From a virus, in the IMG/VR virus record IMGVR_UViG_3300045988_166195, positions 57,023-121,022 of that record: a DNA stretch of 64,000 bases, one strand, 5' to 3'. The notes under the pieces are model-generated. The model was not told the DNA's origin and did no database searches. It saw nothing but the letters and a program-made list of their open reading frames with translations. Shown in pieces: positions 1,053 to 64,000 of this stretch. Numbering within the stretch: the stretch's first letter is position 1; every line of letters begins with the position of its first letter. The position numbers and the translations under genes are program-made.

Positions 1053-3392
1053 GTGTCGATACCGATGAGCTTGAAGCAGAGCATTGTTGTTGTCAACGAG
1101 TTCAGTGTGCCAACCCCAGGCTCGGGCAAGCATGGTGGTTCTCGTGGTGGCACACCCGGTGCTTACGTGATGCGCTATATGGCTCGTAAAGGCGCAACTG
1201 AGCCTGTGACGCCTATTCGTCGACGCAACACCGAGGATTTCATCCTGCGTTACATGGCACGAGAGAGCGCCACAGAAAAAGCCGTGTCGAGGCATCAGCT
1301 CAAAGACAACGTGCTGCATGTGTCCGGTCAAGGCGGCGTTGCATTCGGTTATGGTCAGCCGTCGTTGTCTGATGAAGGCGTGCGCCGTGCCAGTGCTGAC
1401 ATTCAGCGTTTGTTCGACAAGGGGCACACGGTGATGAAAACCGTGCTGTCTTTCAGCCCTGAGTATCTTCAGGAGACGGGCGTCGTCCCCAAGGGCTTCG
1501 TCGCACAGAACAAGGGCGATTACCGAGGTCATATCGACCAGATGCGTCTGCGTATGGCAATCATGCATGGTTTGGAGCGTATGGGGCATCGTTTTGATGA
1601 CCTGCGCTACGTGGGCGTTATTCAGGTTGATACGTTGCATGTTCACTGCCACCTTGCCATGGTTGATGCTGGGCTCGGTCGACGTGTGCGTACAGAGAAG
1701 GGCATGCAACAGAAGGGTAAGCTCACCAGCACGGATATATCGCTCTTGCGACGCGGTGTTGACTCGTGGCTTGATGAGAACCAGCATGTGGCACACATGT
1801 CCAGTGCCGTGGGCTATGAGCGCATGAACGTTGCTGCGTTCGTGAAGCGTTGGGCTCATGAGAAGGTGCTCGATGAGTCACTACCCCAGTTGTTGTTGGC
1901 GTGTCTGCCTGCTGACAAGACGCTGTGGCGTTACGGGTCTCATCGACCGGAGATGCGACGTGCGAACAGTGTTGCGACAGAGCTCGTCACTGAGTTGCTC
2001 GATCGCCTTGGTTCCCCCATGGGATCAGCCATGATCGCTGTGGAGACATATGCGAACCGTCGTGCTCATCGCGAAGGTCTGAGCGATCAGGAGAAACGAG
2101 CGTTGATTCGTCGTGGCCATGAGACGATTATGGAGCGCAGCGTCAATGGTCTGTACCAAGTGTTGCAATCTCTTCCACCTGAGGCTCTTTCCGTGCGTAC
2201 GCCGATGCTCACTGTGATGAGCCAGGATGTGGAGACGCTCATGGCAACGCAATCTCAGCGCATGAAGACCCAGGCTCAGGGTATGAGCGTTGATGATGAT
2301 CTAGTGGGATTCTCACTGCGCCTTCGATCGTATGGAGCTCGTCTACGGGAACATGATACACAGCGTGAGTATTGGCGTATGCGTGCTGCTGACTGGGAAG
2401 CCGGTCTTCAGGCAGGCGCAGTGTCCCCACAGTCCGAGGTGATGCACAAGCTGTATCTGGAGGAAGAGGAATACCACGCTCGTTGCGTCAGTAAGTACCG
2501 ATCGTTGCTCGGGCCACTAGCGGTAGGTGTTGACGGGCAGCGTCAGGATGACGACTCGTGGAAAGACGTGTTGGAGTCGGTGGATAAGCGACGCGAAGCA
2601 GTCGTTGGTCTCGAAGCTCTGCTGGCAGATCGCTCGATTCCGAAGATGAAGGATGCTGATGAAGCTGAAAAGCTTGGTGTTGCTGCTCACGGCGTGAGCG
2701 GTGGACGCTTGCTGGTAGCTGGTGGGAAAGCTGGACGGACCACTTTGAAGCAACGCTTGGAGCGTGCTCGCGCATCGCTGGCTTCCCGAACAGCCGATCT
2801 TGTGTCGATGCTGTCCGGGAAAGGACTTGTATTGCAAGCGATACAAGACGATGCGCGCGAGGATGATCAAGGTAAGCAAAGCGATGCTGTCACCGTGGTT
2901 CCAGGGGAGCGATGGGCGTTGTCTCAGACGAAGGGTATGGATCTGCACGACGTGCGTTCCGATACTGTTGTCGACATGGCGCTTGGTCGCCATGTTGCCG
3001 ATCGGTTCGTTACCTGGGCGCGCAGAAGGCGACAGCTTGTTGATGACGCTCAGGCGTATCTGCATGAGTCTGGTCAGGAAGACATTGTCGAGATGGTTCT
3101 TCCCCTCGATGATGTACGGCGTATGAATCGTGTTGCTGATGATCTGGAACGCCAGATGTCAGCGAAGAAGACCGGGGATCTCATTCTCACGAGTGCTCTT
3201 AGTGATGTGGTGCCAGTAGCGAAACGTATTCGCCGTAGCGCAACAGTGACGTTTGATGAGGGTCTTGCCGGTATTGTTCGTGAGAACACATGGCGCGAGA
3301 CTGAGCGTTTGGTGCCTCAACTGGAACAGGTGTTGGAAGAGAGCGACACGCAGTCTTCTGATGCCTCGATGGATTCCATGGAATTGGGATGA
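1053..3392 (+). CDS. MOBP-family-like conjugative relaxase (HUH nuclease) with long C-terminal extension
   Basis: Duplicated N-terminal motif VMRYMARKGATEPV / ILRYMARESATEKA resembles relaxase motif I (catalytic Tyr, RP4 TraI 'YITDE'). IQVDTLHVHCHLAMVD matches the His-triad motif III (HxDTDxLHxHxxxN/V) of MOBP/MOBQ relaxases. Alternative GTG/ATG start at 1053/1065. Confidence 0.55.
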   Translation: MSIPMSLKQSIVVVNEFSVPTPGSGKHGGSRGGTPGAYVMRYMARKGATEPVTPIRRRNTEDFILRYMARESATEKAVSRHQLKDNVLHVSGQGGVAFGYGQPSLSDEGVRRASADIQRLFDKGHTVMKTVLSFSPEYLQETGVVPKGFVAQNKGDYRGHIDQMRLRMAIMHGLERMGHRFDDLRYVGVIQVDTLHVHCHLAMVDAGLGRRVRTEKGMQQKGKLTSTDISLLRRGVDSWLDENQHVAHMSSAVGYERMNVAAFVKRWAHEKVLDESLPQLLLACLPADKTLWRYGSHRPEMRRANSVATELVTELLDRLGSPMGSAMIAVETYANRRAHREGLSDQEKRALIRRGHETIMERSVNGLYQVLQSLPPEALSVRTPMLTVMSQDVETLMATQSQRMKTQAQGMSVDDDLVGFSLRLRSYGARLREHDTQREYWRMRAADWEAGLQAGAVSPQSEVMHKLYLEEEEYHARCVSKYRSLLGPLAVGVDGQRQDDDSWKDVLESVDKRREAVVGLEALLADRSIPKMKDADEAEKLGVAAHGVSGGRLLVAGGKAGRTTLKQRLERARASLASRTADLVSMLSGKGLVLQAIQDDAREDDQGKQSDAVTVVPGERWALSQTKGMDLHDVRSDTVVDMALGRHVADRFVTWARRRRQLVDDAQAYLHESGQEDIVEMVLPLDDVRRMNRVADDLERQMSAKKTGDLILTSALSDVVPVAKRIRRSATVTFDEGLAGIVRENTWRETERLVPQLEQVLEESDTQSSDASMDSMELG

Positions 3393-10444: not shown

Positions 10445-10618
10445 CATCGATTACGTGATCGCATAGAACAAGAGGTGCGGTGAGGGTTATCCTTGCCGCA
10501 CCTCTTTTCTGTGTCTCTGCGCTTCTGTTTCTGATATGATTAGGTTGGTGAATCAACCAAATCGAAAAGATGCAAGAAAGACGTAAGAGACAGAAGAGAA
10601 AGGTGAAAGGTGGTGCAT

Positions 10619-13600
10619 ATGGCTTTCGGACGAAAGAAATCCGGTGGAGCAGCGCCTCGTGAACACGGTAGCCAAGCGTGGAACCAGTTGGGTAAGCAAG
10701 ACGAGCTTGACTCGCTGGCCTATCAGGATGTGCACGGCGACCAGCAACTAGAACGTAGCGACATCGAGGCGAAGATCTCTCCGGTGTCGCGTGAGGTCGC
10801 ATCGGCTGTTGCCGGTGTGCTTATCTTTATCCTCGTGTGGATGCTGTTCTCGTTCGGCACGATGGGTGTGGCCATGGGCCGTGACGCTCTGTGGCGTTCG
10901 TCTGTTCCGAGCTACGCGGTGCAGAACAAGGCTCTGACGAAGGAGCTGGGCAAGCCTGTGTGGAGCGAAGGGTGTTTCTCTCCAGCTCTCGAAACAGGTG
11001 AGATCGATACGTCCGATGAGACGTGCTATGAAGCTGCTGAGGATGTTCCTGAGCCACAGTGGCACGTGGATGCCGTTGCAGCAGAACAGGCTGAGCGCGA
11101 TGTAGAACTAGCGGATCGCCCAAGCGGTGCGATGGGATGGATGCTGTCATTCGATTGGCTGAAGTTCATTGTGTCGTCGATCGCTGGTCTTGTCGTGTGG
11201 GGCTTGCTGCGTATGCGACTGATGCGCAACTTGAAGGCTCAGAACTTGATGCGGGATACGACCGACATCAACCAATACAAAAACGACCAGCACGTGGCAC
11301 TTCCTGAAGAAGTGCGTGAGCGTTTCGATGTGGTGCCTGACGTGGGCGCGCACACAGGTGTAAGTGCGACGACGCTCATTTCCCACTCGATGGTCTCGAA
11401 CAAGGGCATCAAGAAGGTGGCATTTGCGCAGCGAGCAACTGAGGACATTCTCGACGAGGATGGCGATGTGGCTCTGTTCGAGGGAGAAGCTCTCACGGAC
11501 GATAACGGCGACGTTGTGACCAAGATGGTGCCGATGTTTGACGAAGAGTTTGGTACAGCTCTGTGGAACGCATCGGGGCTACCAGATAACAAGCAACTGC
11601 GTCGTCGTTTGGATCCTCGAAACGTGCCGTACAACCCAGGGAATGCCAACCGAGACAAGCTCAAGGGTTTCAACACCCTGGCTGATCTGGTGAACGGTGA
11701 GTGGGAACTTCCGATGTATGAGCCGCAGCGTCCTGCTGGCGTCTACTACGTGGATACGGCTCCTGCGAACACCATGATCCTAGCTATGACTCGTGCTGGT
11801 AAGGGTCAGACGTACATTGAGCCGATGCTCGATATTTGGATGCGTCAGAAGCGCCCGGATAACATGGTGATCAACGACCCCAAGGGCGAGCTCTTGGTGA
11901 AGAACTATGTTCGTGCCACCATGCGTGGTTTCCAGGTTGTGCAGTTCAACCTCATCAACGCCATGAAGACTGATATTTACAACCCGCTTGGAATGGCTGC
12001 TGAGGCTGCACGCGAAGGTGATCAAACCAAGTGTGCTCTGTATGTCGAGAACATCGCAGATGTCTTCTTCCCTGTGGATGGCGCGGAAGACCCTGTGTGG
12101 CCGAACGCTGCGAACAACGCGTTCAAGCGTGCGGCATACGGCCTCATCGATTACTACCTCGAAGAAGAACATCAGCTGCGTCAGTACGCGATGCGTCACG
12201 GTATGGATCAGAAGGTTCTGGAACAGAAACTCGATGCCATGTGGGGTAAGGTGACGCTCTACAACTGCTACCAGTTGTTCGTGCAGCTCACGAGTAAGAA
12301 GCGTAAGTCTCCGATGACTCAGGTGAACGAGCGCATTAAGAGTGGCTACTACGATCAGCAGTCGTCCGATCCTGATGAAGTCGACGCTCTGATCGAGCAC
12401 GACAAGATGCAGGCTGAGCGTATTGAGTTCTTGTGGGAAGGTAAGCCGGAATCTGACTTGCTCACCTTGTTCTTCAACGCCACTGAGGCGTTGCCTCAGT
12501 CGACGATGCGTACGTTGATCGCTAATGCGAACAACGCACTGCGTGCAATGGCTGGAGCTGAGAAGATGCTCGCATCTGTGTACGGTATTGCTATCACGGC
12601 AATGTCGTTCTTCACGGATCCGACGATCTCGACGTTGACCTCTGGTACTCCGTCACAGAACACGGATCTTGGCGGTCTGTCGTTCCCTCGTCGCTTCGGT
12701 GTGCGTTTCGCTCAGAACTTCACCAAGCGAGACGGTCTCATCGGTGCTCAGGCGAAGTGGGATGCGTTCGATGATCCCGAGTTGAAGCACAACCTGGGTA
12801 AGGATTTCGAGCACGAAGACACAGTGGTGCGAGAAGGATGGGCTCGTTATTACTTCGACGGTAAGTTCCCACATGACGTTGCCTACTTGCGACTGCGTTT
12901 GTTCAACCCCCAGACGGGTGTGTTGCTCAAAACGTTCTACTTCCAGTTCACGAAGGGTTACCAGCTCTCGTTGAATGGTCGTAAGTTCGTCAAGGATCCG
13001 ATCACGGGTAACAAAATCATCCGTAATGGCGTTCTCGTGGAGATGGTGAAGGGTAAGAACGGGGTTCTTGTTTCTGGTCACCTGAGTTATCCGGCAACAC
13101 GTCTGTTGGATAAGGCGGGGAGCCTCAAGACTGTACGAGAGGATGTCCCTGCGATTATCCTGTCGTCGGTTCGTTATTCGGAGCAGCCGAAGGCTGTGTT
13201 CCTGGTGACGCCACCTCACTTGATGAAGTACGCGAAGCTCGTACTGATTCTTGTGAAGCAGTTGGTGGATCTGAACTTCGATAAGTCGTACATGACGAAG
13301 GCGAACCAGAAGCCGCTCTACAAGACGCGCTTCATGCTCGACGAGCTCGGCAACTTGCAGTCCGAGGGTCACGGTATCTCGGGATTTGAGACCATGCTCT
13401 CCATTGGTCTGGGTCAGGAGCAGCAATTCACGCTGATTCTTCAGACGTTGCAGCAGGCTCGTGACGTTTACGGGGACAGCGTAGACAAGATCATTCAGGG
13501 AAACGTTGCCAATATCGTCTTCTTGAAGTCGACGGATGACACGATGATTGAGACGTTGGCCAAGATGTCCGGTACTCGCCACCGTGCGGTGCGAGACTCT

Positions 13601-14665
13601 AAGACGGTGACTCAGGATACTGAGCGTCTCATCGAAGGTCTGAACGTTGAGGGCAAAGTGTCGTACACGATCAGCGCGAAGGAAGAAAGTGTCATTGGGT
13701 ACAACGATCTGGCATTCTTGCCGGAACGTAACTCGATCATCTTTTCGGCAGGCATCTCGCCTATCTGGAACCGCAATGCGGAGATTCTTCCTATGTCGTG
13801 GCGCTTGTTCAGCAACACGATCAAGCATCCGGGCCGCGAGTACTCACTTCAGACGATTCCGACTCTCTCGTCGGCGCTTGATTTCGATGTGCGTCTTAAC
13901 CAGCCGAACTTCATGAAGATGCTGGATAAGCGCATCGAGCAAGCCGCGAATGCGGCTGAGGCGATGGAGTTGTACCAGGAGGCATACGATCTGGATGATT
14001 ATGGCATCTCGATCCTGGATCCCGATGTGTACTCGGCTGAGGTCATGGATCTCATTGCCTCGATCGAGGAAGAGCGCAGGGGCCACGACATGGAGAACGA
14101 AGAGTACGACATGGACAGTGACGAGGCTCTACGTGCTCAGTTGGGATCTGGCTACGATATGTTCAACGAGGCTGACGAGATTAACGAAGATGTCCGCGAG
14201 GATCTTGCTGCTCGTCAGGAGATGTTGGCCGATCGAGCGAAGATGCGCTACGCGGAAGGTCAGATCAGCCGTGAGCATCTGATGAGTGAGAGTGGACAGG
14301 TGTTGCACCATCTCGATGGTGACATCGTTGCTGCGTATCGTGAAGCGAAGCACGCAATGGTGGATGACGTTCGGTTCTTCCGAACAGACGAGAACGGTTC
14401 GCTGTGCTCGCTGGATGGAAAGGTCTACATCAGCCAGGGTGTGTCGAGCGATGAGCTGCGTACTCTCCAAACCGCATCGTCCGATGAGACGAGCGGTGTG
14501 TATGCGGATGATGAGTCGATCTCTGAGATCGCGGACCTGGGTTCGTGGCGAGTCCATGATGCGTTCTATAGGTTCTTGCACGGCCTGGAGTCGTGGGAGG
14601 ATCTCGGCGGAGGCACTTTCGATCGCGCTATTGCACGAGTGTTCGAACGTCGAGAGAACGAGTGA
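10619..14665 (+). CDS. Type IV secretion coupling protein-like ATPase (VirD4/TraG/TraD family) with ~700-aa C-terminal extension
   Basis: Two N-terminal TM helices. Walker A MTRAGKGQT. DPKGEL motif (MVINDPKGELL). Walker B-like RFMLDELGNL. Q-rich stretch typical of T4CPs. Acidic/aromatic C-terminal 300 aa with no known motif. Confidence 0.65.
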   Translation: MAFGRKKSGGAAPREHGSQAWNQLGKQDELDSLAYQDVHGDQQLERSDIEAKISPVSREVASAVAGVLIFILVWMLFSFGTMGVAMGRDALWRSSVPSYAVQNKALTKELGKPVWSEGCFSPALETGEIDTSDETCYEAAEDVPEPQWHVDAVAAEQAERDVELADRPSGAMGWMLSFDWLKFIVSSIAGLVVWGLLRMRLMRNLKAQNLMRDTTDINQYKNDQHVALPEEVRERFDVVPDVGAHTGVSATTLISHSMVSNKGIKKVAFAQRATEDILDEDGDVALFEGEALTDDNGDVVTKMVPMFDEEFGTALWNASGLPDNKQLRRRLDPRNVPYNPGNANRDKLKGFNTLADLVNGEWELPMYEPQRPAGVYYVDTAPANTMILAMTRAGKGQTYIEPMLDIWMRQKRPDNMVINDPKGELLVKNYVRATMRGFQVVQFNLINAMKTDIYNPLGMAAEAAREGDQTKCALYVENIADVFFPVDGAEDPVWPNAANNAFKRAAYGLIDYYLEEEHQLRQYAMRHGMDQKVLEQKLDAMWGKVTLYNCYQLFVQLTSKKRKSPMTQVNERIKSGYYDQQSSDPDEVDALIEHDKMQAERIEFLWEGKPESDLLTLFFNATEALPQSTMRTLIANANNALRAMAGAEKMLASVYGIAITAMSFFTDPTISTLTSGTPSQNTDLGGLSFPRRFGVRFAQNFTKRDGLIGAQAKWDAFDDPELKHNLGKDFEHEDTVVREGWARYYFDGKFPHDVAYLRLRLFNPQTGVLLKTFYFQFTKGYQLSLNGRKFVKDPITGNKIIRNGVLVEMVKGKNGVLVSGHLSYPATRLLDKAGSLKTVREDVPAIILSSVRYSEQPKAVFLVTPPHLMKYAKLVLILVKQLVDLNFDKSYMTKANQKPLYKTRFMLDELGNLQSEGHGISGFETMLSIGLGQEQQFTLILQTLQQARDVYGDSVDKIIQGNVANIVFLKSTDDTMIETLAKMSGTRHRAVRDSKTVTQDTERLIEGLNVEGKVSYTISAKEESVIGYNDLAFLPERNSIIFSAGISPIWNRNAEILPMSWRLFSNTIKHPGREYSLQTIPTLSSALDFDVRLNQPNFMKMLDKRIEQAANAAEAMELYQEAYDLDDYGISILDPDVYSAEVMDLIASIEEERRGHDMENEEYDMDSDEALRAQLGSGYDMFNEADEINEDVREDLAARQEMLADRAKMRYAEGQISREHLMSESGQVLHHLDGDIVAAYREAKHAMVDDVRFFRTDENGSLCSLDGKVYISQGVSSDELRTLQTASSDETSGVYADDESISEIADLGSWRVHDAFYRFLHGLESWEDLGGGTFDRAIARVFERRENE

Positions 14666-54162: not shown

Positions 54163-54589
54163 ATCCTCGTCATGTTGGATGCGGCGTCAGTGGGGTGCAG
54201 CATGTGGGACCTTCTTTCAATTCTAAGGTGCACGAGCGGTAGGGTTCCGCGCATGTGGGATACAGGGAAGTACTCGTACGCCAGAGGAATCGTACATTAC
54301 ATTGGGTTACCGCGCAAGCTGCGCATGGCGGTCAACGACCATGTTACCGGTCGTCATCTTCTGTTGTCTCTCGACGCGCGACAGCGCGTTACCCAGAGAG
54401 ACGACAAGGGTACGGGGGTCTCTCGTGCTCCAAACGCGTCTGTGAGGCTCTGAAATGACCTCAATGCATCTGAGTGCCGGTTTTTGTCTCCCAGGGCCGT
54501 AGAGACGCGCCTGGGGGCCTTCTCGGGGATGTGGAGCCTCTTCAGCGGAGCGCATTGCTCATGAAGGGGAGTCGATGGGTGCTGTGAGA

Positions 54590-55125
54590 GGGGCCTGTAG
54601 CAGTTTTTCTTCTCGATGTAGCAGATTTCGAAAAATATCTGCTACAGGGTTTTTTGGCGGGATTTCAAGGAAAAGCTCTTATTGATAATTATTTCTAATA
54701 AATATCTGCTACATATATAATCGTTGGTATTTCAACGTAAAACCTGGTTTGTAGCAGATGTAGCAGATATTTTCCTCGCTATGCACGCATGCGCGCACAC
54801 GCACGTGTGATACCCGAAGAAGTTGTTTCTGTCAATCCTGAGAATGTATGCATTTCATATGCCGAGATGATCGCTTGACTGTGTGTTTGGATGCGTGTAT
54901 CACGCGCACATACGCGCATGCGCACCTGAAGACTTGGTGTCAAAAAGCTGCTACATCTGCTACAAGTGGCACTTTTCGTTGCAATGATGCGCGAAAGTGC
55001 CGTAGCAGCGATTTTTGGCCCTGTAGCAGTTTTTGCTACACGTGTTGTTTGCCTTGGTATTTCAAGGGAAACAGGGTCGTAGCGTGTAGCAGTTTTTGGT
55101 CCAACATCTGCTACAAGCCTTGTTT
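54590..55125. repeat. Iteron-rich origin-like region: >12 copies of (G)TAGCAG(A/T/C) / CTGCTAC(A) in both orientations, AT-rich spacer, GC-rich alternating pur/pyr palindromes
   Basis: Copies read at 54596, 54620, 54649, 54707, 54750, 54759, 54946, 54955, 55003, 55023, 55035, 55086, 55107. AT-rich 54680-54740. gcgcacatacgcgcatgcgcac at 54900-54925. Hairpin ggcacttttcg-TTGCAATGATGCGCG-cgaaagtgcc at 54967-54998. Confidence 0.6.
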
Positions 55126-55404
55126 TGTCGTGCTTGTAGTGATCGCGGCCACAGTGCTGTTTCGGTGTTGCGCGCGATGATTTACCAATATATGTTGGAG
55201 ATCACAATCGGCCTAGTTGTCTGTATACGCATTGGTGTTGCATGTGTGTTCTTGTTCGTGTATCCTGTCGTTGACAGGTTGATTCGGGTTCGTGGAAGTG
55301 AACCGAGATCTGGGACGATGTGGGACCGCACAACGTAAAACGGACGGGAGCTGGTGGGACGGCTCCCGTTCGTGTTTCTGGGGAGAGAAGTCGCATCACA
55401 ATAA

Positions 55405-55435
55405 AACAGGGGCCATCCGGTGAGGATGGCCCCTG
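55405..55435 (-). terminator. Perfect 13-bp hairpin acaggggccatcc-ggtga-ggatggcccctgt, followed on the minus strand by ttttattgt
   Basis: Rho-independent terminator geometry for the minus-strand gene ending at 55513. Confidence 0.55.
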
Positions 55436-55512
55436 TTGCTTTCATGAAAAGATCCGCTGGTAGCCGTTGCTGTCGGCTTGGGATCCGGGTCTGTGTTTAC
55501 GGTGTGACGCGA

Positions 55513-56025
55513 TCACGCTGCTGCGTGTGCGCGTGCCCACTTCGCCTGCTTCTTGGCGCGGTGCTTCGCAGGATTCCACCGTAGGGAGTGCCTGTCAGCG
55601 AGCTGCTCACGTTGAGCCTTCTGCTCCGCGAGGAACTCAGTTCGGGTGAGGCCATCGTGGTTCTGACGCTCTACCCAGAGCTTGAACTCCATAGAGTTCG
55701 TGTCCGGTAGCGCATAAACGAACTCGGCAGCGTACACGCGAGCCCTCTTCAGGAAGACGATGCGCTCGCGGATGAGCACACCGCGTCGATCGCGGATGCG
55801 GCGCTTTGTTTCGCGGTACTGCCAGTTGTCCAGCAGATCCTGCTTCGTCTCGCTGGGGAGACGGTTGTACACTACGTGACGCAGGATTGCACCAGGCGTG
55901 CCGTCGAAACCCTCGATACCTTCTCCAGGCTTCGGGGGATTCCATGACATACCAAGATCCTTGGGCAGATTCGGGATGACGATGTTCTGCTTGTTGTCGT
56001 AGATGAGTCCACGCTGAATGATCAT
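55513..56025 (-). CDS. Hypothetical 170-aa protein with basic C-terminus, adjacent to iteron region
   Basis: RBS gaaaggaggattgtcATG. Lys/Arg-rich tail (HRAKKQAKWARAHAAA). Function unknown (possible DNA-binding). Confidence 0.5.
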   Translation of the reverse strand: MIIQRGLIYDNKQNIVIPNLPKDLGMSWNPPKPGEGIEGFDGTPGAILRHVVYNRLPSETKQDLLDNWQYRETKRRIRDRRGVLIRERIVFLKRARVYAAEFVYALPDTNSMEFKLWVERQNHDGLTRTEFLAEQKAQREQLADRHSLRWNPAKHRAKKQAKWARAHAAA

Positions 56026-56177
56026 GACAATCCTCCTTTCTGTTTGAAGATATATTAAAAGATTGAAATGAATGATGAAACTTGTTTCTTCATTCCAATC
56101 CCCGGTTCGTACCGTGTACGAACCGGGAGGTGTGACGGGGGTACTCCACCCACCGTCACACCTCCCATGTGTCTACA

Positions 56178-56966
56178 TCACAGCTCACTCACTGAGGTAT
56201 CCGTTTTGCGTTTTGCTTGGATGCGCGGGATGTACATCCATAGACCCAGTGTGATGACAACGAGCAATGCAGCGGCTACAGCATCCAAGTTTCCGACGTG
56301 GACGCTTGGTAGCAACAATGCTGTTGTGTTGAACAGCATGTGCATGCTGATGCACGCAAGGAGATTGTGCGTTCTCTCGTACAGATACCCGAGGGCAATA
56401 CCCAGTGGGATTGTGAGGATGATCTGTACGATATTGCCGTGCAGCATGGCGAAGAGTAGTGCCGTGACCACGATCGTTGATGTCACCGATAGCTTTCGCC
56501 TGAGGATCGGGTAGATGAATCCTCGCATGAGGGCTTCTTCACCGATCGGTGCGATGATGAGACTCATGATGACAATGGCGATAGCCGGTGTCGTTTCACT
56601 GAGTTTCTGCATGGGTGATGGTTGATCCAACGATTGCTTGACCCACAGGGCGAGAACTGTTGAACCGAGAGTCATCACGATGGTGATAACGGGCACCATC
56701 ACGCATTCCACGGTCGGAATGTGCCGCTTCTTGATCGTTGGAGCTGCGCTGTTACGTCGTCTCCAGAAGATGACGCAGGTTGCTGCGAATGCGTTGGTGT
56801 AAGCGACGGTGAATACCGGTTTTCCAACGATCGTGTGGACGAGTGCCATGACTCCCGCGTATGCGAAGATGGACATAAAAGCCATGACCACGAGACCTGT
56901 TCGGCTCTCTCGGCTTTCTCGTGTACTATCCCACATCTCGTAGATGGCCTTCTTTAGTGTGATCAT
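56178..56966 (-). CDS. CPBP-family (CAAX/Abi) intramembrane glutamic endopeptidase
   Basis: Multi-TM. APIGEEALMRGFIYPIL (EExxxR) and LLFAMLHGN (FxxxH) motifs. RBS gaaagggtgtaATG. Confidence 0.65.
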   Translation of the reverse strand: MITLKKAIYEMWDSTRESRESRTGLVVMAFMSIFAYAGVMALVHTIVGKPVFTVAYTNAFAATCVIFWRRRNSAAPTIKKRHIPTVECVMVPVITIVMTLGSTVLALWVKQSLDQPSPMQKLSETTPAIAIVIMSLIIAPIGEEALMRGFIYPILRRKLSVTSTIVVTALLFAMLHGNIVQIILTIPLGIALGYLYERTHNLLACISMHMLFNTTALLLPSVHVGNLDAVAAALLVVITLGLWMYIPRIQAKRKTDTSVSEL

Positions 56967-58864
56967 TACACCCTTTCTTGTTCGTCTTGATGTTCTGGTT
57001 GCTCTACCTCATGGTCGACGATTCCTTGCAGGGTGGTACGGCCTGCGAAGGTGTTGAGTCCCAACGCCACTCTGAGACGGCATATCATGTCTGCCCCGTC
57101 GACGCTGTTTTTCCGTTCAGTGAGATGGGGTGCGAGATCCGATCGGTTCCACCACAGCAGCGCAACACCTTCAGGCGTGATGAGCTTGAGGTGCTGCTTG
57201 TGGTCACCCATCGTGTGGATCGAGCACACGGACAGGTTGATGACCACATCAACAGGTGGGGCTGGGAACCCGTGCCCGAAGGGAGCGAGTTCCTTTACCT
57301 TGTCCATGTATTGCGTGATCGCACGAATCTCGTCAAGCGGCGCATCTGCATCAGGGGCTGTTCCCAGCACGAGAGCTGCTGGATCGGAATGGGTGAGGAC
57401 ACCTGTCTGTGCGATGACAGCATCACGCCGTTGTGGCACAAGGGTGGCCAGTGCGTCATAGAGTTGCTGGGGTGAGCGTGCGCGTACACCACAGGCGAAC
57501 TCGTGACCCTGCGCACCGATGGTCGGATCTTGCAACGATGTGAGCTGTTCGATGACAGGGAACCATGTGGGGGACCGCATGGAACCTGAGCACGATCCGT
57601 CCGGGTGGATGCGAACGACTGCAACGGGGTGTTCGTGCATGAGCATGAGGTTCTGAGCAATGAGGCCCAGCATGCCTGGTAGCGCATCTGTGGGGAATAC
57701 GTATGGTGCCCATGGCTGATCCGTATCCATGATGGAATCGAGGATTTCACGGACCTGGTTCTTTCTCTGTACGTTGTACTCAACGAGACGTTGCGCTGCC
57801 TCTTGTTGCTCATCAAGGGTGTCTGCCGTGAAGACTGCGAAGCCGGTCCTGTAGTCTCCGTCAACACGCCTTGTGGCGTTGAATGCCGGAGCGATCGAGA
57901 ATCCGTAGAGCTGCTCGTCGACGCGTTCATGGGTTGTGCCTAGCTCCTGTAGGAGCAGGTTCATGCCTTCGAATGCGCGCATGTACACCGGGTGGTGGTT
58001 CTGCGCGCGTAGCATGGCCAACAACGTGGGGGTCCGGTCGATGTCGATCTCAATGTCATCGAGTTCGTCAGGCTCTTCGTACTTAGACTTCACCTTCTTG
58101 TACGTGGGTCCAGGCTCGGGTGTGGCAATGAGCAGCCTGGTGAACATGAGCGCCTCGCGCACGAGGTCTCGGTTTTCGTACACAAGACTCATCACGTCAG
58201 CTACTGTTCCGATGCCTGCAAAGACTTTGAGCCACGTGATGGCAGAGAGCTTGTCGGGGTGGTAGAGCGATGCATATCGTTCCACCACTTGGTATGCCAC
58301 GTGCGCCCCACAGATTTCTCGGTTGGGGTATGCCTCGTCGATCCTGTTCGGGTTGACGAGGATATGCGCGAGAGACTTGCTCTCTTCCACGTGGTGATCG
58401 GTCACAAGGGTGATGAGACCGATGTTGTCTGCGTAGGCGAGAGCATCCCGGCTGTTGGTTCCAGCATCACAGGTGATGACAGCCTCCGTGTTGGGGAACT
58501 GCTGCTTGACTGTGTGGATGACCGATGGCTGGATCTCGTGTCCGAGGTGGTAGTCGGGGACATGAAGATTGGTGGTGAGGCCAATCTCGTTGAGTCCCGC
58601 GTAGAGAATCATGCCCGCGCAGATACCGTCTGTATCGAAGTCTGGTACGACGGTGATCTCTTTATCGGTCGATCGCATGATTTCCAGCGCCATCACCATC
58701 TGATCGATGTCCTTGAGCAAGGGATGCTGGGCATCGTTGATCTTCTTCAGGTACTGATCGGTCCACCCCATCCGTTCCCGGACACGGTTGAACAGTTCTA
58801 GGCCACTGACCTCGAACATGGATTCATCGATGTCGAGCGGGGGTGAAGTTGGTTGTGAAGCCAT
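56966..58864 (-). CDS. RecJ-like DHH/DHHA1-family phosphoesterase (ssDNA exonuclease-like)
   Basis: VVPDFDTDGICAGMIL (motif I DxD), CDAGT, LVTDHHVEE (DHH). 632 aa. RBS gaaaggagttactaccacATG. Confidence 0.65.
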   Translation of the reverse strand: MASQPTSPPLDIDESMFEVSGLELFNRVRERMGWTDQYLKKINDAQHPLLKDIDQMVMALEIMRSTDKEITVVPDFDTDGICAGMILYAGLNEIGLTTNLHVPDYHLGHEIQPSVIHTVKQQFPNTEAVITCDAGTNSRDALAYADNIGLITLVTDHHVEESKSLAHILVNPNRIDEAYPNREICGAHVAYQVVERYASLYHPDKLSAITWLKVFAGIGTVADVMSLVYENRDLVREALMFTRLLIATPEPGPTYKKVKSKYEEPDELDDIEIDIDRTPTLLAMLRAQNHHPVYMRAFEGMNLLLQELGTTHERVDEQLYGFSIAPAFNATRRVDGDYRTGFAVFTADTLDEQQEAAQRLVEYNVQRKNQVREILDSIMDTDQPWAPYVFPTDALPGMLGLIAQNLMLMHEHPVAVVRIHPDGSCSGSMRSPTWFPVIEQLTSLQDPTIGAQGHEFACGVRARSPQQLYDALATLVPQRRDAVIAQTGVLTHSDPAALVLGTAPDADAPLDEIRAITQYMDKVKELAPFGHGFPAPPVDVVINLSVCSIHTMGDHKQHLKLITPEGVALLWWNRSDLAPHLTERKNSVDGADMICRLRVALGLNTFAGRTTLQGIVDHEVEQPEHQDEQERV

Positions 58865-59504: not shown

Positions 59505-60638
59505 TCAGCAGACGGTGCGTCCTTCGATGATGACGCAGCCGGGACGATCTGCCTGTCCGGGACCGAAGTCAATGCGACCGTCACCCGAGCCAGAGTTGTT
59601 GGCCGGGGGTGCCGGTGCAGGGGCAGGAGCCGGAGGCGTGTAGGAGGATCCACCGGAGTAGCTCGGGCTGTTCGAGCCGCTGTTGCTGCTGCCTCCATTG
59701 CCGTTGTAACCGTACGAGGGGGCGGGGGCGTTGCTGTTGTTGCTGCCCTGTTCAGGTGCGCTGGTTTCCGGCGTGGTGGAAGCGGGGGCATTGCCAGCCT
59801 TCGCTGCCTGGTAGGTGGTGATAGCCTTCTGGAGCGGTGCCACGGAAGCCGTCACCTCAGAAGCCTTCTGCTCAATGGTCTTCGCCTTCTCGATGGAGGC
59901 CACAGCCTCATCGTAGGTGGTGACCGTGATCGTGGTGGATAGGGTGTGAGACTCGGTCTCCACGGCCTTGAGAGCATCGTATGCAGCCTTCACGGACGCG
60001 TCAGACTCCATGTTGGGGTCGGCCTCAACAGCAGCAATTTGCTCCGCCGCGCTCTGCTGAGCGCTTGCGAGGTTGGACTTTGCAGTGTCCATCAGCTCGT
60101 TGGCCTCATCGGTGGCCTTGGTCAGACGGTACGCATCGCGCACGCTGACGAACGACTGGGTCTGATCCTTGATGGCCTTGATGGCAGCATCAACAGAGGT
60201 GGTGTCGGGTTCGCCCGAGCACTTGCTCTTCTTGCTGTCGGTAGCATCAGCATTCACCTTGGCGTCCTCAGCCTCCTTGGCGCTCTTGGCAGCGCTGATG
60301 GCCTTGCTCAGGTCGTTGATGGCGCTCTGCCCCTCAGAGGACAACGGGAAGCCGTCCGTGTGTGCGAGGCGAGTACCCTCGCCGGGCTTCAGGGACGCGT
60401 CGACAGTCTTCAGTGCGTCCTTAGCGTCCTGGATCGCCTGATCCAGCTCAGCGGTCTTGTCGGTGAGGATCTGTTGGTAGGACGTGCAGTCCTTCGCGTT
60501 GTGGGACTGCGAGCCGAAGACTGCGATACCGATGCCTGCGATAGCGAGGATCACGGCAACAGACGCAGCGATCGCGGCGATGATCTTGTTGCGCTTCGAC
60601 CACGTGCGCGGGTCGAGGTTGTTCTTGGCGGTAGACAT
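59505..60638 (-). CDS. Membrane-anchored coiled-coil protein with Gly/Ser/Pro/Asn-rich C-terminal tail
   Basis: Start ATG 60638 (MSTAKNN) with aggagaaatcaaacATG. TM IIAAIAASVAVILAIAGIGIAVF. Ala/Lys/Asp-rich helical middle. Low-complexity C-terminus (PAPAPAPPANNSGSG). Confidence 0.5.
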   Translation of the reverse strand: MSTAKNNLDPRTWSKRNKIIAAIAASVAVILAIAGIGIAVFGSQSHNAKDCTSYQQILTDKTAELDQAIQDAKDALKTVDASLKPGEGTRLAHTDGFPLSSEGQSAINDLSKAISAAKSAKEAEDAKVNADATDSKKSKCSGEPDTTSVDAAIKAIKDQTQSFVSVRDAYRLTKATDEANELMDTAKSNLASAQQSAAEQIAAVEADPNMESDASVKAAYDALKAVETESHTLSTTITVTTYDEAVASIEKAKTIEQKASEVTASVAPLQKAITTYQAAKAGNAPASTTPETSAPEQGSNNSNAPAPSYGYNGNGGSSNSGSNSPSYSGGSSYTPPAPAPAPAPPANNSGSGDGRIDFGPGQADRPGCVIIEGRTVC

Positions 60639-60731
60639 GTTTGATTTCTCCTTGATGGTGGTGATTGATATGTGGTTCGGGTGTGGGGCGATTACCTTGG
60701 CCACATGGTCACCATCATCAAGGGATTTTGA

Positions 60732-61343
60732 TTAGGCGTCCGTGTTGGCCTCGGGATCTTGGTCTGCGAGGTGGACGTAGGTGGGCATCGCCACGACACG
60801 GATGTATGTGTCGGGGTCGATGTTGGATGGGGTCATTCGATACTCCGGTGGGAGCATCAGTGTGATGAACGTGTCGTGAACACGCTGACCATTATCGTCG
60901 GAGCGCAGAATCTCGTCTTGCACGCGAACGAGGATGTTGTTCTCGTCGGGCGGTAGGGAGATTTCGCCGTTTTCTGGGTTCATTGCCAGGTTCTCGGCAG
61001 CTGGGACGACGATCGTTGTCATGATGTCCTCGTTTTTAAGGACGCCCAGAATGCCTTCATCGTCAACGAGGCGGGCGTTATGCCCGTTCTTCTTGAGCCA
61101 ACCATTGAGGTAGGCATTGTTCGTGACGACATTGACCTCGACATGGGGGATGTCGATGAGGGTACTGATGTCGTCATCATTGTTGATCGACTGCGGGGTG
61201 TCGTTGGCGACGTGTGGGAGAAGCGCAAGATTCATTCGCGCGATGGTTTCTGCCACAGTCTCGCCAATCTGGAACACCTTCGTGGTGGGCTCGGTCGCAA
61301 CAGTGATAGTAATCGTGTTGCTTGGGTTGTCCGTGTTGCTCAT
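60732..61343 (-). CDS. Hypothetical 203-aa acidic protein
   Basis: RBS aggagccatctatatATG. Confidence 0.45.
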   Translation of the reverse strand: MSNTDNPSNTITITVATEPTTKVFQIGETVAETIARMNLALLPHVANDTPQSINNDDDISTLIDIPHVEVNVVTNNAYLNGWLKKNGHNARLVDDEGILGVLKNEDIMTTIVVPAAENLAMNPENGEISLPPDENNILVRVQDEILRSDDNGQRVHDTFITLMLPPEYRMTPSNIDPDTYIRVVAMPTYVHLADQDPEANTDA

Positions 61344-64000
61344 ATATAGATGGCTCCTGTCTGTCGTTTTTCATGGTTCTTATCTGGCCATGTATTGGCC
61401 ACGATAAGACTCTTCTCAACTGCTCGGCTCGCCAGCGGCGAGCTGATCTGTTGGAACGAAATGATTGCAGGAATCATTTTTGAAATGATTTCCATCTTTC
61501 GATGAAAAGCCCGGTGCCACCTGTGGTGGCACTCGATGTATCGGAGCATGTGGAACAGACAGCCCGAGGCAGGGGTGGGTTGTTCCACATGCAATTCAGT
61601 GATCTTTCATGATCCGAATGGTTATGCGTTTCGTGCTGAGACTTGTGAGAGTCTCAGTGGAGCGTGTTCGCGTCATGTCGGATGGGAGCCTTGTTGATTA
61701 CTGCATATCATTGTTTGTATGGGGTTGTTGTCACCCACTGTGCACTTCGTATTAGTTGCTCAGTGAGTGTGCATATCTGTTTATGGAACAGATGTTAATA
61801 ACCCCATGAATAGCGTTGATATGCGGGGTGTATCCACCCCTGTATCACCAGTCACTGTATTTCCTGTGATGGAACCTGTGGTGACTGTAGTGGCACTCGG
61901 TACAGCCTGTGGATGTGCCGTTACCGAATCCTGTTGCTTTCCATTATGTACAACTCTTACGTTTTTGGAGGTTTTGCGCGAAGCATCAAAAACGTAAGAG
62001 TTGATTGACGAGCAACAGGTGTTTCTCAGGGTCTGAGTGATGAGACCGTGAATCGTATATGTTGATGAGGCAGGTGTGATTTTATTTTGTGTCTCCCTCA
62101 GCGACATATACGACCAAGGTGGTTTACAGTCATCGACTTGTGAATTGTAGATCAGGGTCGATGATTTGTTTCCCATCGCCTTGGGACACGGGACTCATCG
62201 CGAAGACCCGATGGCACAGATGCATGAATAATGCGTCTGTGCCGTGTTTCAAGCGTCTGGAACAGACGCGCAGAGGGCACCCGAGACAGCCCCAGTGGGG
62301 CTGTGGAGGGCAAGCCTGTGAAGCGACAGCGTAACAGGCGCAGTAAGAGCCCCAAGGAGCAACGCGACGCAGGGGTGAGGTGACACCCGCAGCGTAGCGA
62401 GGACGGTCACCGAAGGGCTGTCGGCTATGCCGACCGAAGGAGTACGCGTAGCGTACGACTGAGCCAGCCCCTCTTATGCCCTTTTTTACCTGATCCACCG
62501 CCAGCGACCATTAGGGAGCGTAAGGTGGGCAAAGTGGCGCAACGAAGGGGAAAACAGGCGATACCACCCCCGGTGGGACCACGGGTCGTTGAGGCGGTAC
62601 CGCCTCCGAGACGTGGTACCACGTGTGCCTGTTTTCCCTGTTAAGACGGGGTTTAGGTGAGACCATGGTCCGAGCTTGCTTGGCACCGTGGTCTCACCAT
62701 GCGGCACAGCCGCTGTAACAGAGTGACGAACCGAGCGAGCGCAGGTTTGGCACACTGTTGTGACCCCCGCCTTGCCGGGTCGTGAAACGGCCCGTCAGCG
62801 CCGTTAAGGAGCACAGTGTAGCTGGGCTCCGTTGACACTCTGTAAGGCCCTGAGACAGGCTGTTCTGGCCCGTTATCGGGACAAGACAGACTGGTTCAGG
62901 GCCGTTTGTTTCTGTGCTCTTCAGACATTGAGACAGCAGCTGTTGCAGCAGCTGCTGGGGAGTACACCAGATGGCGTGGCATCTGGTGTCTGAGAACGCT
63001 GTTTCAATACCTGTTGGAAGAGCGCAGAAACATGTTGGCGAAGCCCCCATTAACAGTCCACCGGATAACGCGCAGCATCCTGCCTCACGTGCAATGAAGC
63101 ATGTGAGGCAGGATGTTTTAGAGCGCTTATATTGAGTTATCCGGTGGCATATTCTAGCCACATGCAACAGGGCTATAACAGCCTTTTTATAGAGCCCTGT
63201 TACATGTGTGAATACCATGTTGTTACGCAGTTGTTGTATGGCTGTTTATTCCCCATCTGAGACTATCTCTTTTTTGAGTGTGTCTCAGATGGGGGTACAA
63301 CAGATAAAACAGAACGTGAATCACCACATGTGACAGCCTGTTTATAAACAGCTGCGTAGCAGCGTTGTAGATGTGGTGTGCGGCAGCGTTGTATCTGCTG
63401 TTTCGCCTAGAGGCTGAGAACCCATTTATCTGTGCCTCGTATCAATGCCCTGAGACAGCCTAGTAACAGCCTAGTGACATGCGTCCGTATCACGGTTGTT
63501 GCCATCGATCGATACAGCCTAAATAAACGTCGTGATGCATGGTTATGAGGCCCTTGCTGTTCCTTTAGACCCGGTTGATGACTGCGTGAATGCAGAGCTG
63601 CAACCGGGGCTGTGGTGCAGCATGGCTGCGTATCTGGTTGCGTCGATGCGTCTGTAGCAGGCGCAATGGTGACCGGATAATGGCCAATGAAAGACCAATA
63701 AGTGGTCAATGGTGACCAGTTTGGAGCCAGTTAAGCACCAGAGACAGTAGCAGGTCTTTATCTGGTCCAATGATGGCCATATAAAGGCGCTTTGTTGGCC
63801 GTACTATGGCCAGTGGTACCCCATGGTCGTTATCGGGTTCTTTGTTGGCCTTATAACGGTCCATTATTAGACCATGTAAGAGCCAGGTGACAGCCTGGAT
63901 CAATGATGGGCCAATAATGGCGCTTTGTTGGGCTTATGTATGGCGCAATGGTGGCCACAGTATGGCGTTTTCCGGGTCAGGAAAAGCCTGGTAGATGATG
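61344..64000. repeat. 2.6-kb non-coding, repeat- and palindrome-dense region (candidate oriT / partition site / structured RNA locus)
   Basis: See findings. ACAGCCT(A/G) x7. CAATG(G/A)TG(G/A)CC x5 in 63660-63960. TTTGTTGGCC x3. Nested hairpin 63061-63146. 15-bp IR actcttacgtttttg/caaaaacgtaagagt at 61955-62003. 14-bp palindrome ctgtttataaacag at 63349-63362. No convincing ORF. Confidence 0.6.

Follow-up and report, generated by a model that had tools for sequence, protein, structure and literature searches.

To our knowledge, very few bacterial RNAs longer than 500 nt with complex conserved folds have been described, and RNase P, group II introns, OLE, GOLLD and ROOL each revealed unusual biochemistry or architecture. 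GOLLD (RF01998), ROOL (RF03087) and OLE (RF01071), the known examples of which measure 0.6–1 kb or more, combine many helices and multibranch junctions with conserved unpaired nucleotides, lie in gaps of mobile elements that are free of open reading frames (ORFs) and have no obvious cis-regulatory target, and form RNA-only oligomers (PMC12286853). IMG/VR has already been surveyed on a large scale for candidate structured RNAs (PMC10690425). Here we analyse a 64,000-nt stretch of IMG/VR record IMGVR_UViG_3300045988_166195 (positions 57,023 to 121,022 of that record; hereafter the window, numbered from its first letter), which belongs to a conjugative-plasmid-like element of about 105–126 kb, probably circular and probably hosted by oral Actinomyces, and focus on an ORF-poor gap at 61344–64337. 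On balance, and with confidence somewhat above even, we regard this gap as a large divergent non-coding control region that holds two separate functional units: a candidate RNA sharing all the features of size, architecture and setting listed above for GOLLD, ROOL and OLE, and an array of phased direct repeats resembling the parC centromeres of the parC/ParR/ParM systems of R1 and pSK41 (Table 1).

The gap is flanked on one side by a 203-aa gene of a leftward operon, which starts at 61343, and on the other by a GH16 glycosidase gene on the plus strand, which is preceded by a hairpin terminator and a promoter-like site. An earlier note on this DNA, made from the letters alone, had described 61344–64000 as a terminal, ORF-free region and a candidate oriT, centromere or telomere-proximal structure. 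The region is not terminal, since the gap closes at 64337 before the GH16 gene and the assemblies of 121,126 bp (an ENA scaffold, locus L001) and 120,982 bp (a JGI contig) break elsewhere; both come from human-associated metagenomes and both carry the 203-aa gene. Nor is it strictly ORF-free: mechanical ORFs of 174, 131 and 122 aa exist, the first of them called by a gene caller, but all are interrupted by stops or frameshifts in nine relatives, and no conserved protein in an extended frame came to light, as no ORF of the region survives in the relatives. Alternative genetic codes and stop-codon reassignment opened no frame across the region. Since the ORFs are broken in relatives and no reassigned code opens the region, 61344–64337 is non-coding. 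A 219-aa ORF called in clade B, a group of related elements of about 111 kb, was rejected as a gene on account of its odd composition and a frameshift in locus L020. Annotated phages and plasmids yielded no match to the region in DNA searches for either close or remote similarity, and a template of the diversity-generating retroelement or retron type was rejected because the region has no similarity elsewhere in the window.

Conservation of the gap was compared in the nine relatives, all from IMG/VR, and then in clade B. Among the nine relatives, 62032–62781 is 94–100% identical, compared with 83–97% in the coding flanks; in clade B, where the flanking protein is 47% identical, 62173–62872 is still 81–82% identical in DNA. 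The core has 82% nucleotide identity to clade B, set against six flanking genes that range from no alignable match up to 74% (62–74% where they align), and 89.5% identity to locus L014, above all six flanking genes tested. The predicted RNA fold of 62020–62910 has an energy of −450.7 kcal/mol (z = −14.8 on the plus strand and −13.3 on the minus strand), and all 300-nt windows in 61300–63399 have plus-strand z-scores of −5.9 to −9.4, whereas genes mostly lie between 0 and −4.

An alignment of 20 sequences yielded 249 pairs in 31 helices (RNAalifold), with standard pairs in 98.5% of cells as against 37–46% when the partners were slid, compensatory change on both sides in 40 of the 249 pairs as against 2–9, and a covariation score of 0.159 as against 0.02–0.045, a value that none of 500 shuffles reached. 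With 31 non-redundant sequences, metagenome lineages included, 74 of 297 pairs were compensatory compared with 21–29 when slid. Besides local hairpins, covariation backs the junction-closing helices 62114–62184, 62644–62772 and 62909–63030. Judged from these alignments, the fold is evidently under selection for both its pairing and its unpaired sequence. Cells of the G·U type outnumber those of the A·C type by 480 to 23, wobble is the majority state in 26 pair columns, and across 62500–63099 the plus-strand z-scores are −7.2 and −8.8 against −2.9 and −4.6 on the minus strand; because of this wobble excess and the stronger plus-strand z-scores, the fold is assigned to the plus strand.

The repeats and hairpins that the earlier note had picked out in this region are real and non-random, with small miscounts. 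An inverted repeat given as 15 bp at 61955–62003 is present, but its arms are 17 nt long, perfect, and start at 61951; it shows seven compensatory pairs among the 31 sequences, and clade B keeps the stem through changes on both arms, with G·T wobbles on the plus strand. The nested hairpin stands as described, with perfect 12-nt outer arms (63058–63069 and 63136–63147) and 17-nt inner arms that are 94% complementary (63076–63092 and 63099–63115). Its outer and inner stems have seven and nine compensatory pairs, respectively (31 sequences), and are kept with different sequences in relatives and clade B (CCACCAGATGAG / CTCATCTGGTGG). Since covariation supports these stems along with the other helices of the 1 kb fold, the hairpin is the 3′ part of that fold and not an isolated relaxase site; together with the TTTT that follows, it is possibly the terminator of the structured element. 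The outer arms (GTTATCCGGTGG) resemble the TTATCTGGTC motif of the repeat array described below. A supposed relation of the hairpin loop to a promoter motif did not hold up, as the loop sequence is present a single time and sequences close to it are no more frequent than expected by chance. The perfect 14-bp palindrome CTGTTTATAAACAG is present, but the surrounding 63332–63381 is only 67% identical, with indels, in close relatives; the palindrome is not conserved and is probably incidental.

Searches of the 64 kb window with Rfam 15 gave no match at gathering score, including to GOLLD, ROOL, OLE, raiA, HEARO, group I and II introns, RNase P, tmRNA and 6S; a 3.2 kb region around the fold gave chance-level miRNA-type matches only (E 0.5–5), four diverged homologous loci gave none at E ≤ 1, and ARAGORN found no tRNA or tmRNA genes. 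Apart from those chance-level matches, no Rfam model scores at E ≤ 5, or at E ≤ 1 on the four diverged representatives, and the candidate RNA is therefore not a member of the GOLLD, ROOL or OLE families; also unlike these, it is found on a conjugative-plasmid-like Actinomyces element with no tRNA genes nearby. Our best reading of about 61950–63150 is a large structured non-coding RNA (ncRNA), new relative to Rfam 15, and we lean modestly towards an undescribed class of ornate RNA exceeding 1 kb, possibly an RNA-only assembly, a ribozyme or the core of a ribonucleoprotein (RNP). Such an RNA would be read from the plus strand as a transcript of about 1.1–1.2 kb with predicted ends near 61950 and 63150, would fold into about 30 helices with several multibranch junctions, and would serve the element through its folded structure, as an RNA or as the scaffold of an RNP, and not as a cis-acting DNA site. 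The earlier note had missed this structured element, which makes up about 40% of the region.

Two lineages differ at the 5′ side of the fold. In loci L055 (1233–4745) and L042 (3117–3866), a 165-nt 5′ module of another kind precedes the core and meets it at about window position 62208, from which it follows that the part common to all lineages is about 62205–62860 plus 63020–63061. In L055, the conserved part is preceded, at a distance of 67 nt, by the end of the gene for a 553-aa large serine recombinase and, beyond that, by a gene for the antirestriction protein ArdA; this arrangement suggests that a mobile element has inserted at or within the structured element. On the 3′ side, 63150–63650 contains rather variable hairpins. 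The fold of 63100–63399 has z = −6.7, and the stretch with two stem-loops is 83–87% identical in close relatives and has a CAGGGC...GCCCTG hairpin as its clade B counterpart; these stem-loops belong either to the same transcript, as hairpins at its periphery, or to elements of their own.

The second unit, from 63660 to about 64080, comprises at least 15 sites with a TGGYC core (15 were mapped in 63670–64068, a lower bound), with spacings of 11, 22, 10, 50, 11, 22, 11, 17, 22, 61, 22, 23, 58 and 58 bp. Its words include CAATGGTGGCC, which is dominant, TTTGTTGGCC, TTATCTGGTC and TATGGCC, and its autocorrelation peaks at 11 and 22 bp. Of five copies of CAATGRTGRCC reported earlier, four are exact (63664, 63707, 63768 and 63946; 0.17 expected in the window, and 0 of 100 shuffles reach four), whereas the fifth (CAATGATGGGCC, 63901) has a 1-nt insertion; two further exact copies lie just beyond the window end, at 64004 and 64062. 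Similarly, two of three reported copies of TTTGTTGGCC are exact (63791 and 63841) and the third is the variant TTTGTTGGGC, and ACAGCCTR, credited with seven copies in 63170–63895, has five exact ones there, although it is indeed enriched (3.0 copies would be expected in the window and 11 are present, a count that none of 100 shuffles attained; six are plus-strand copies in the region). A 58-bp unit (CAATGGTGGCCACAGTATGGCGTTTTCCGGGTCAGGAAAAGCCTGGTAGATGATGGCA) is duplicated in tandem exactly across the window end (63946–64000, continuing in L001 at 7400–7270) and is single-copy in the nine relatives, which show other insertions and deletions in the array, so that its copy number is variable. An array of this kind occupies the corresponding position in clade B.

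The array shares its motif with a partition-like operon. Relatives (L080 and others) encode a 445-aa actin-like protein (Pfam ALP_N, 35.7 bits with a cut-off of 26.3; phrog_691 ‘partition protein’, 4e-20), and just before it a 157-aa protein with an acidic tail and a beta-alpha-alpha N-terminus whose sequence pattern appears ribbon-helix-helix-like (RHH-like). The 180 bp upstream of this RHH-like/ALP operon hold a small array of the same words (TTGTTGGC, AGTTGGCC, ATCTGGTC and GACCAGATAAG), including the inverted pair CTTATCTGGTC / GACCAGATAAG. The 10-mer TTATCTGGTC occurs in 79 of 90 loci, against about 0.03 copies expected per locus, and in nearly all loci the mapped copies fall in three settings: the array, a position about 40 nt before the 203/172-aa gene, and the stretch that precedes the RHH-like/ALP operon. 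On one contig, the array and the operon-upstream region have 30 8-mers in common, against a mean of 5.7 (s.d. 4.9) in other windows, a number equalled by 1 of 803 windows. A position weight matrix (PWM) of the array, used at a permissive threshold, proved too unspecific for linking regions, and the exact 10-mer and shared k-mer tests were used instead. The array PWM also scored a small cluster of array-like words in L080 (16595–16709; CAATGCTGGCC and CATTGTTGCCC), which may be a further binding site or chance.

Like parC in the R1 and pSK41 systems, the array consists of many short direct repeats phased at about 11 bp, one helical turn; the element, as seen in relatives, encodes an actin-like ATPase beside a small protein with a putative RHH-like N-terminus and an acidic tail; and the array motif recurs in promoter regions, as expected for an autoregulating adaptor. 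Unlike those systems, the large array lies about 18 kb from the par-like operon, which has a smaller array directly upstream instead, and the repeats are degenerate and number at least 15; the gene order of the operon, adaptor then ATPase, is a further difference from the R1/pSK41 type. The earlier note had suggested a look for ParA/ParB or a relaxase accessory protein just downstream; the neighbour is the GH16 gene. Its suggestion of a centromere or parS-like array is the best reading of 63660–64080, given the observed phasing, the variation in copy number and the motif shared with the operon, with binding putative. The evidence favours a candidate ParR-type centromere or operator array, which would be bound by a DNA-binding protein encoded by the element, most likely the RHH-like protein beside the ParM/Alp-type ATPase. 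This protein may coat the array as ParR coats parC, giving a type II partition centromere and/or a regulatory sink, and the motif about 40 nt upstream of the 203-aa gene would place the leftward operon under the same protein.

Taken jointly, a control region with an ncRNA of about 1.1–1.2 kb and a ParR-type array is the best explanation of the locus, one that we hold with a little more confidence than doubt, and several observations count against it. For the RNA, no sigma-70-like plus-strand promoter was found upstream of 61950, and the TTTT after the inner hairpin is not kept in clade B, so the ends given above are predictions. DNA energy parameters give z = −17.2 for the same strand, equally exceptional. 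Positions 62412–62530 and the long-range helices 62415–62434 / 63034–63059 are invariant, so covariation cannot speak to their pairing, and two alignments pair them differently; the sequences form few clades, so many compensatory cells stem from few events; and, in the outer stem of the nested hairpin, apparent covariation could arise from inverted half-sites to which a protein binds. For the array, the RHH-like/ALP operon is some 18 kb off by the contig coordinates of L005 and L080, unlike in classical parMRC loci, where the centromere is directly upstream and overlaps the operon promoter, the RHH assignment of the 157-aa protein comes with no Pfam or PDB sequence match, the dominant word CAATGGTGGCC is similar but not identical to the operon-upstream words, and the operon is known from relatives and not from the window’s own record.

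If correct, the joint reading would add a new class of large RNA, more conserved than the neighbouring proteins, on common oral Actinomyces elements of about 105–126 kb that carry their own two-barrel RNA polymerase. The candidate RNA combines good covariation support with dozens of natural variants, a defined genetic context and an abundant element of the human oral microbiome, and the adjoining array is a testable candidate centromere for an actin-type partition system. On our best reading, the observation made in the earlier note is largely right, a centromere is the preferred interpretation of the array, oriT and telomere are not supported, and the candidate RNA is the most interesting content of the region.

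The array could instead comprise the iterons of a vegetative origin, with an initiator such as the D5-type primase-helicase (compare phage P4 and SaPI pri-rep) and with the upstream transcript serving activation or priming in the manner of ColE1 RNA II. Like typical iteron origins such as R6K, P1 oriR and P4 ori/crr, the array has direct repeats with a period of about 22 bp, differs in copy number between relatives and is confined to a single locus, occurring once in 71 kb; it lies near a replication gene block (RecJ-like, primase, DNA polymerase, SNF2); and the structured transcript would head towards it, much as RNA II is a long structured transcript aimed at a cis-acting repeat region. We nevertheless consider an origin unlikely, if still a serious contender, because no rep or initiator gene adjoins the array (the neighbours encode the GH16 glycosidase, a membrane protein with a coiled-coil and the 203-aa protein, for which no fold was recognised), 9.5 kb separate it from the primase gene, no DnaA box (TTRTCCACA, even with one mismatch) occurs in 61344–64000, and no AT-rich unwinding element lies beside the array, where GC content is 47–57% and the lowest 40-bp values are found elsewhere. 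No GC-skew switch occurs at the gap in the 71 kb examined, and the array motif is common to the promoter region of the partition operon. The fold is also twice as long as RNA II and far more complex, an origin downstream of it would be putative, and no antisense regulator was identified.

A second alternative concerns the fold itself, which might be formed not by RNA but by plus-strand single-stranded DNA (ssDNA) exposed in conjugative transfer or rolling-circle-type replication. It might then serve as a site of single-strand initiation (ssi), as a loading site for primosome or primase, or as a hairpin promoter (compare Frpo/ssi and N4), perhaps read by the fused beta/beta′ RNA polymerase of the element. 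Inverted repeats, strand-specific folding and an element with relaxase and coupling protein are indeed shared with oriT, Frpo-type ssDNA promoters and ssi sites: the element encodes MobL, a coupling-protein-like ATPase, a D5-type primase-helicase and the 1853-aa two-barrel RNA-polymerase-like protein. The exceptional z-score with DNA parameters noted above, and the many stems of 6–7 bp with 3-nt loops, count in favour of ssDNA. GC skew is positive on the plus strand in nearly all windows over 71 kb (the window plus L001 to equivalent 71343) whatever the gene orientation, suggesting strand asymmetry through unidirectional replication or another strand-specific process, and in the variant lineage L055 the gene for ArdA, which is typical of leading regions, lies about 2.4 kb from the core. 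Yet about 10% of paired cells are G·T-type wobbles and 26 columns are wobble-majority, which is normal for RNA and costly in DNA, and the region lies 58–61 kb from the relaxase gene either way, not the expected place of a leading region. A size above 1 kb, a nested multibranch architecture and long invariant unpaired stretches far exceed known ssi and Frpo elements; the region is about ten times larger than these, far more conserved and rich in conserved G·U-type pairs. We rank an ssDNA fold below RNA, and consider it improbable, because so many wobble pairs are conserved, because of how large the fold is and how it is built, and because the relaxase gene lies 58 kb away.

The earlier note’s proposal of an origin of transfer at 62.9–64.0 kb, in which the nested hairpin would be the repeat recognised by the relaxase next to nic, gains from the MobL relaxase and coupling protein of the element and from the strong conserved inverted repeats of the region, but appears very improbable. 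The relaxase gene lies at a distance of 58 kb, and the 130-bp gap immediately before it contains an 11-bp perfect inverted repeat of its own (GACAGGGGCGG / CCGCCCCTGTC, 944–978), placed where an oriT is classically found, or where the gene before it could have its terminator. Neither a relaxase nor an accessory gene adjoins the nested hairpin, which is contiguous and co-conserved with the strand-specific fold of about 1.2 kb; and its stem sequences vary freely among clades while pairing is kept, as would be expected of a structural helix more than of a site that a relaxase recognises by its sequence. A telomere-proximal location finds no support, given the circular assembly of the element. Finally, a patchwork of duplex DNA features with co-evolving arms (operators, palindromic sites, terminators and recombination sites) and no dedicated RNA or ssDNA function would accommodate the operator-like motifs in some arms (61378–61407 and the outer stem of the nested hairpin) and the serine recombinase gene that abuts the core at about 62208 in one lineage, beside the palindromic 62211–62245, but we give it scant credence because about 30 helices, some closing junctions of 70–130 nt, stay paired with unrelated sequences, a wobble asymmetry on one strand is meaningless for duplex sites, and invariant unpaired stretches of 30–40 nt would go unexplained.

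Table 1 Features of the gap and selected genes in the window.
Feature	Positions in window	Strand	Remarks
Leader and promoter-operator of the leftward operon	61344–61740	−	Conserved, structured
Conserved hairpin 5′ of the core	61951–62003	+	17-bp perfect stem in window
Core of the large structured element (candidate ncRNA)	62027–63059	+	About 30 helices, multibranch junctions, long invariant unpaired stretches
Nested hairpin, 3′ domain of the structured element	63058–63147	+	12-bp outer stem, 13–17-bp inner stem-loop, then TTTT
Two stem-loops in a more variable stretch	63159–63208 and 63242–63303	+	
Perfect 14-bp palindrome CTGTTTATAAACAG	63335–63348		
Phased TGGYC-core direct-repeat array	63660–64000, on to about 64080	+	Followed by terminator (64128–64163) and GH16 gene (64337)
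MobL relaxase	1053–3392		E = 1e-62
Type IV secretion system (T4SS) coupling-protein-like (T4CP-like) ATPase	10610–14665		
ClpB-like double AAA+ protein, 1257 aa	4238–8011		LAGLIDADG / homing-endonuclease (intein-like) insert at residues ~835–920
Fused beta/beta′ RNA-polymerase-like protein, 1853 aa	15448–21009		

On the other side of the fold, the leader of the leftward operon is also conserved above the coding flanks, 61382–61581 being 99% identical in the nine relatives, and its fold has z = −8.4 on both strands. A sigma-70-like site lies on the minus strand at about 61707–61734 (L001 9610–9637, plus strand). The leader holds an inverted repeat, TTATCTGGCC (CTTATCTGGCCATGTATTGGCCACGATAAG, 61378–61407), that bears the shared operator-like motif, and TTATCTGG(C/T)C lies about 40 nt 5′ of the start codon of the 203-aa gene in every clade. 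The 203-aa protein has no sequence match in Pfam, PHROG, NCBIfam or PDB, and its AlphaFold model (pLDDT 70.7) has no significant Foldseek match in PDB. A 399-aa neighbour (59505–60704) has an N-terminal transmembrane helix, a long coiled-coil, a low-complexity stretch rich in Pro, Ala, Ser and Gly, and, conserved at its C-terminus, the sequence CVIIEGRSVC; among its 735 homologues, each of the best 120 reaches at least 86% identity. It was rejected as an initiator or ParM, being a membrane-anchored coiled-coil low-complexity protein.

The break points of the two assemblies differ (window equivalents 28985 and 62018) and the window spans both, so the element is circular or circularly permuted and the window end is arbitrary. 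L001 is identical to the window over 3,269 compared bases and runs past its end, and the gap is internal in several contigs of 105–126 kb; contig or locus ends inside the region were rejected as physical termini because break points vary between assemblies. The region was found in 18 viral-collection contigs, 32 metagenome contigs and one metagenome-assembled genome (MAG), all of one element family; this ‘uncultured Actinomyces sp.’ MAG is the only genome with the region among 185,579 species representatives. Besides the genes in Table 1, the window encodes UvrD, SNF2, MgsA, a DNA polymerase, a D5-type primase-helicase and a RecJ-like nuclease, and relatives encode, farther along, a dNMP kinase, the actin-like ALP_N protein, a sortase and LPXTG / AgI-II-type surface proteins. 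The 1853-aa protein has short matches to the double-psi-barrel catalytic regions of both beta (Rpb2_6) and beta′ (Rpb1_2), which identifies it as a fused single-chain two-barrel RNA polymerase; it had no tblastn match among 50,697 phage records. No phage structural or hallmark genes were found among the proteins scanned, which represent part of the ORFs of part of the element, and the nearest MobL proteins in PLSDB belong to megaplasmids of Streptomyces, Gordonia and Rhodococcus. The gene content of these contigs, MobL and T4CP included, points to a conjugative plasmid. This revises the host–element picture, in that sequences listed as ‘viral’ in IMG/VR bear a relaxase, a coupling protein, sortase-anchored adhesins and an actin-type partition system.

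In one relative (L080, contig IMGVR_UViG_3300006748_000137), 7124–20318 encodes sortase-domain, LPXTG-anchored and AgI/II-C2-domain proteins along with the actin-like partition gene. Some homologues of neighbouring genes (proteins P0019, P0035, P0081 and P0155) lie on contigs of 233–252 kb, about twice the unit of 105–126 kb, which could be dimers, assembly concatemers or a larger relative. A second structured stretch is present at 55300–56200, where 300-nt folds on the minus strand have z = −6.6 and −9.5; it adjoins a 1.35-kb ORF-poor gap (54163–55512) between the primase gene and a 170-aa gene, and this part of the window may hold another non-coding element.

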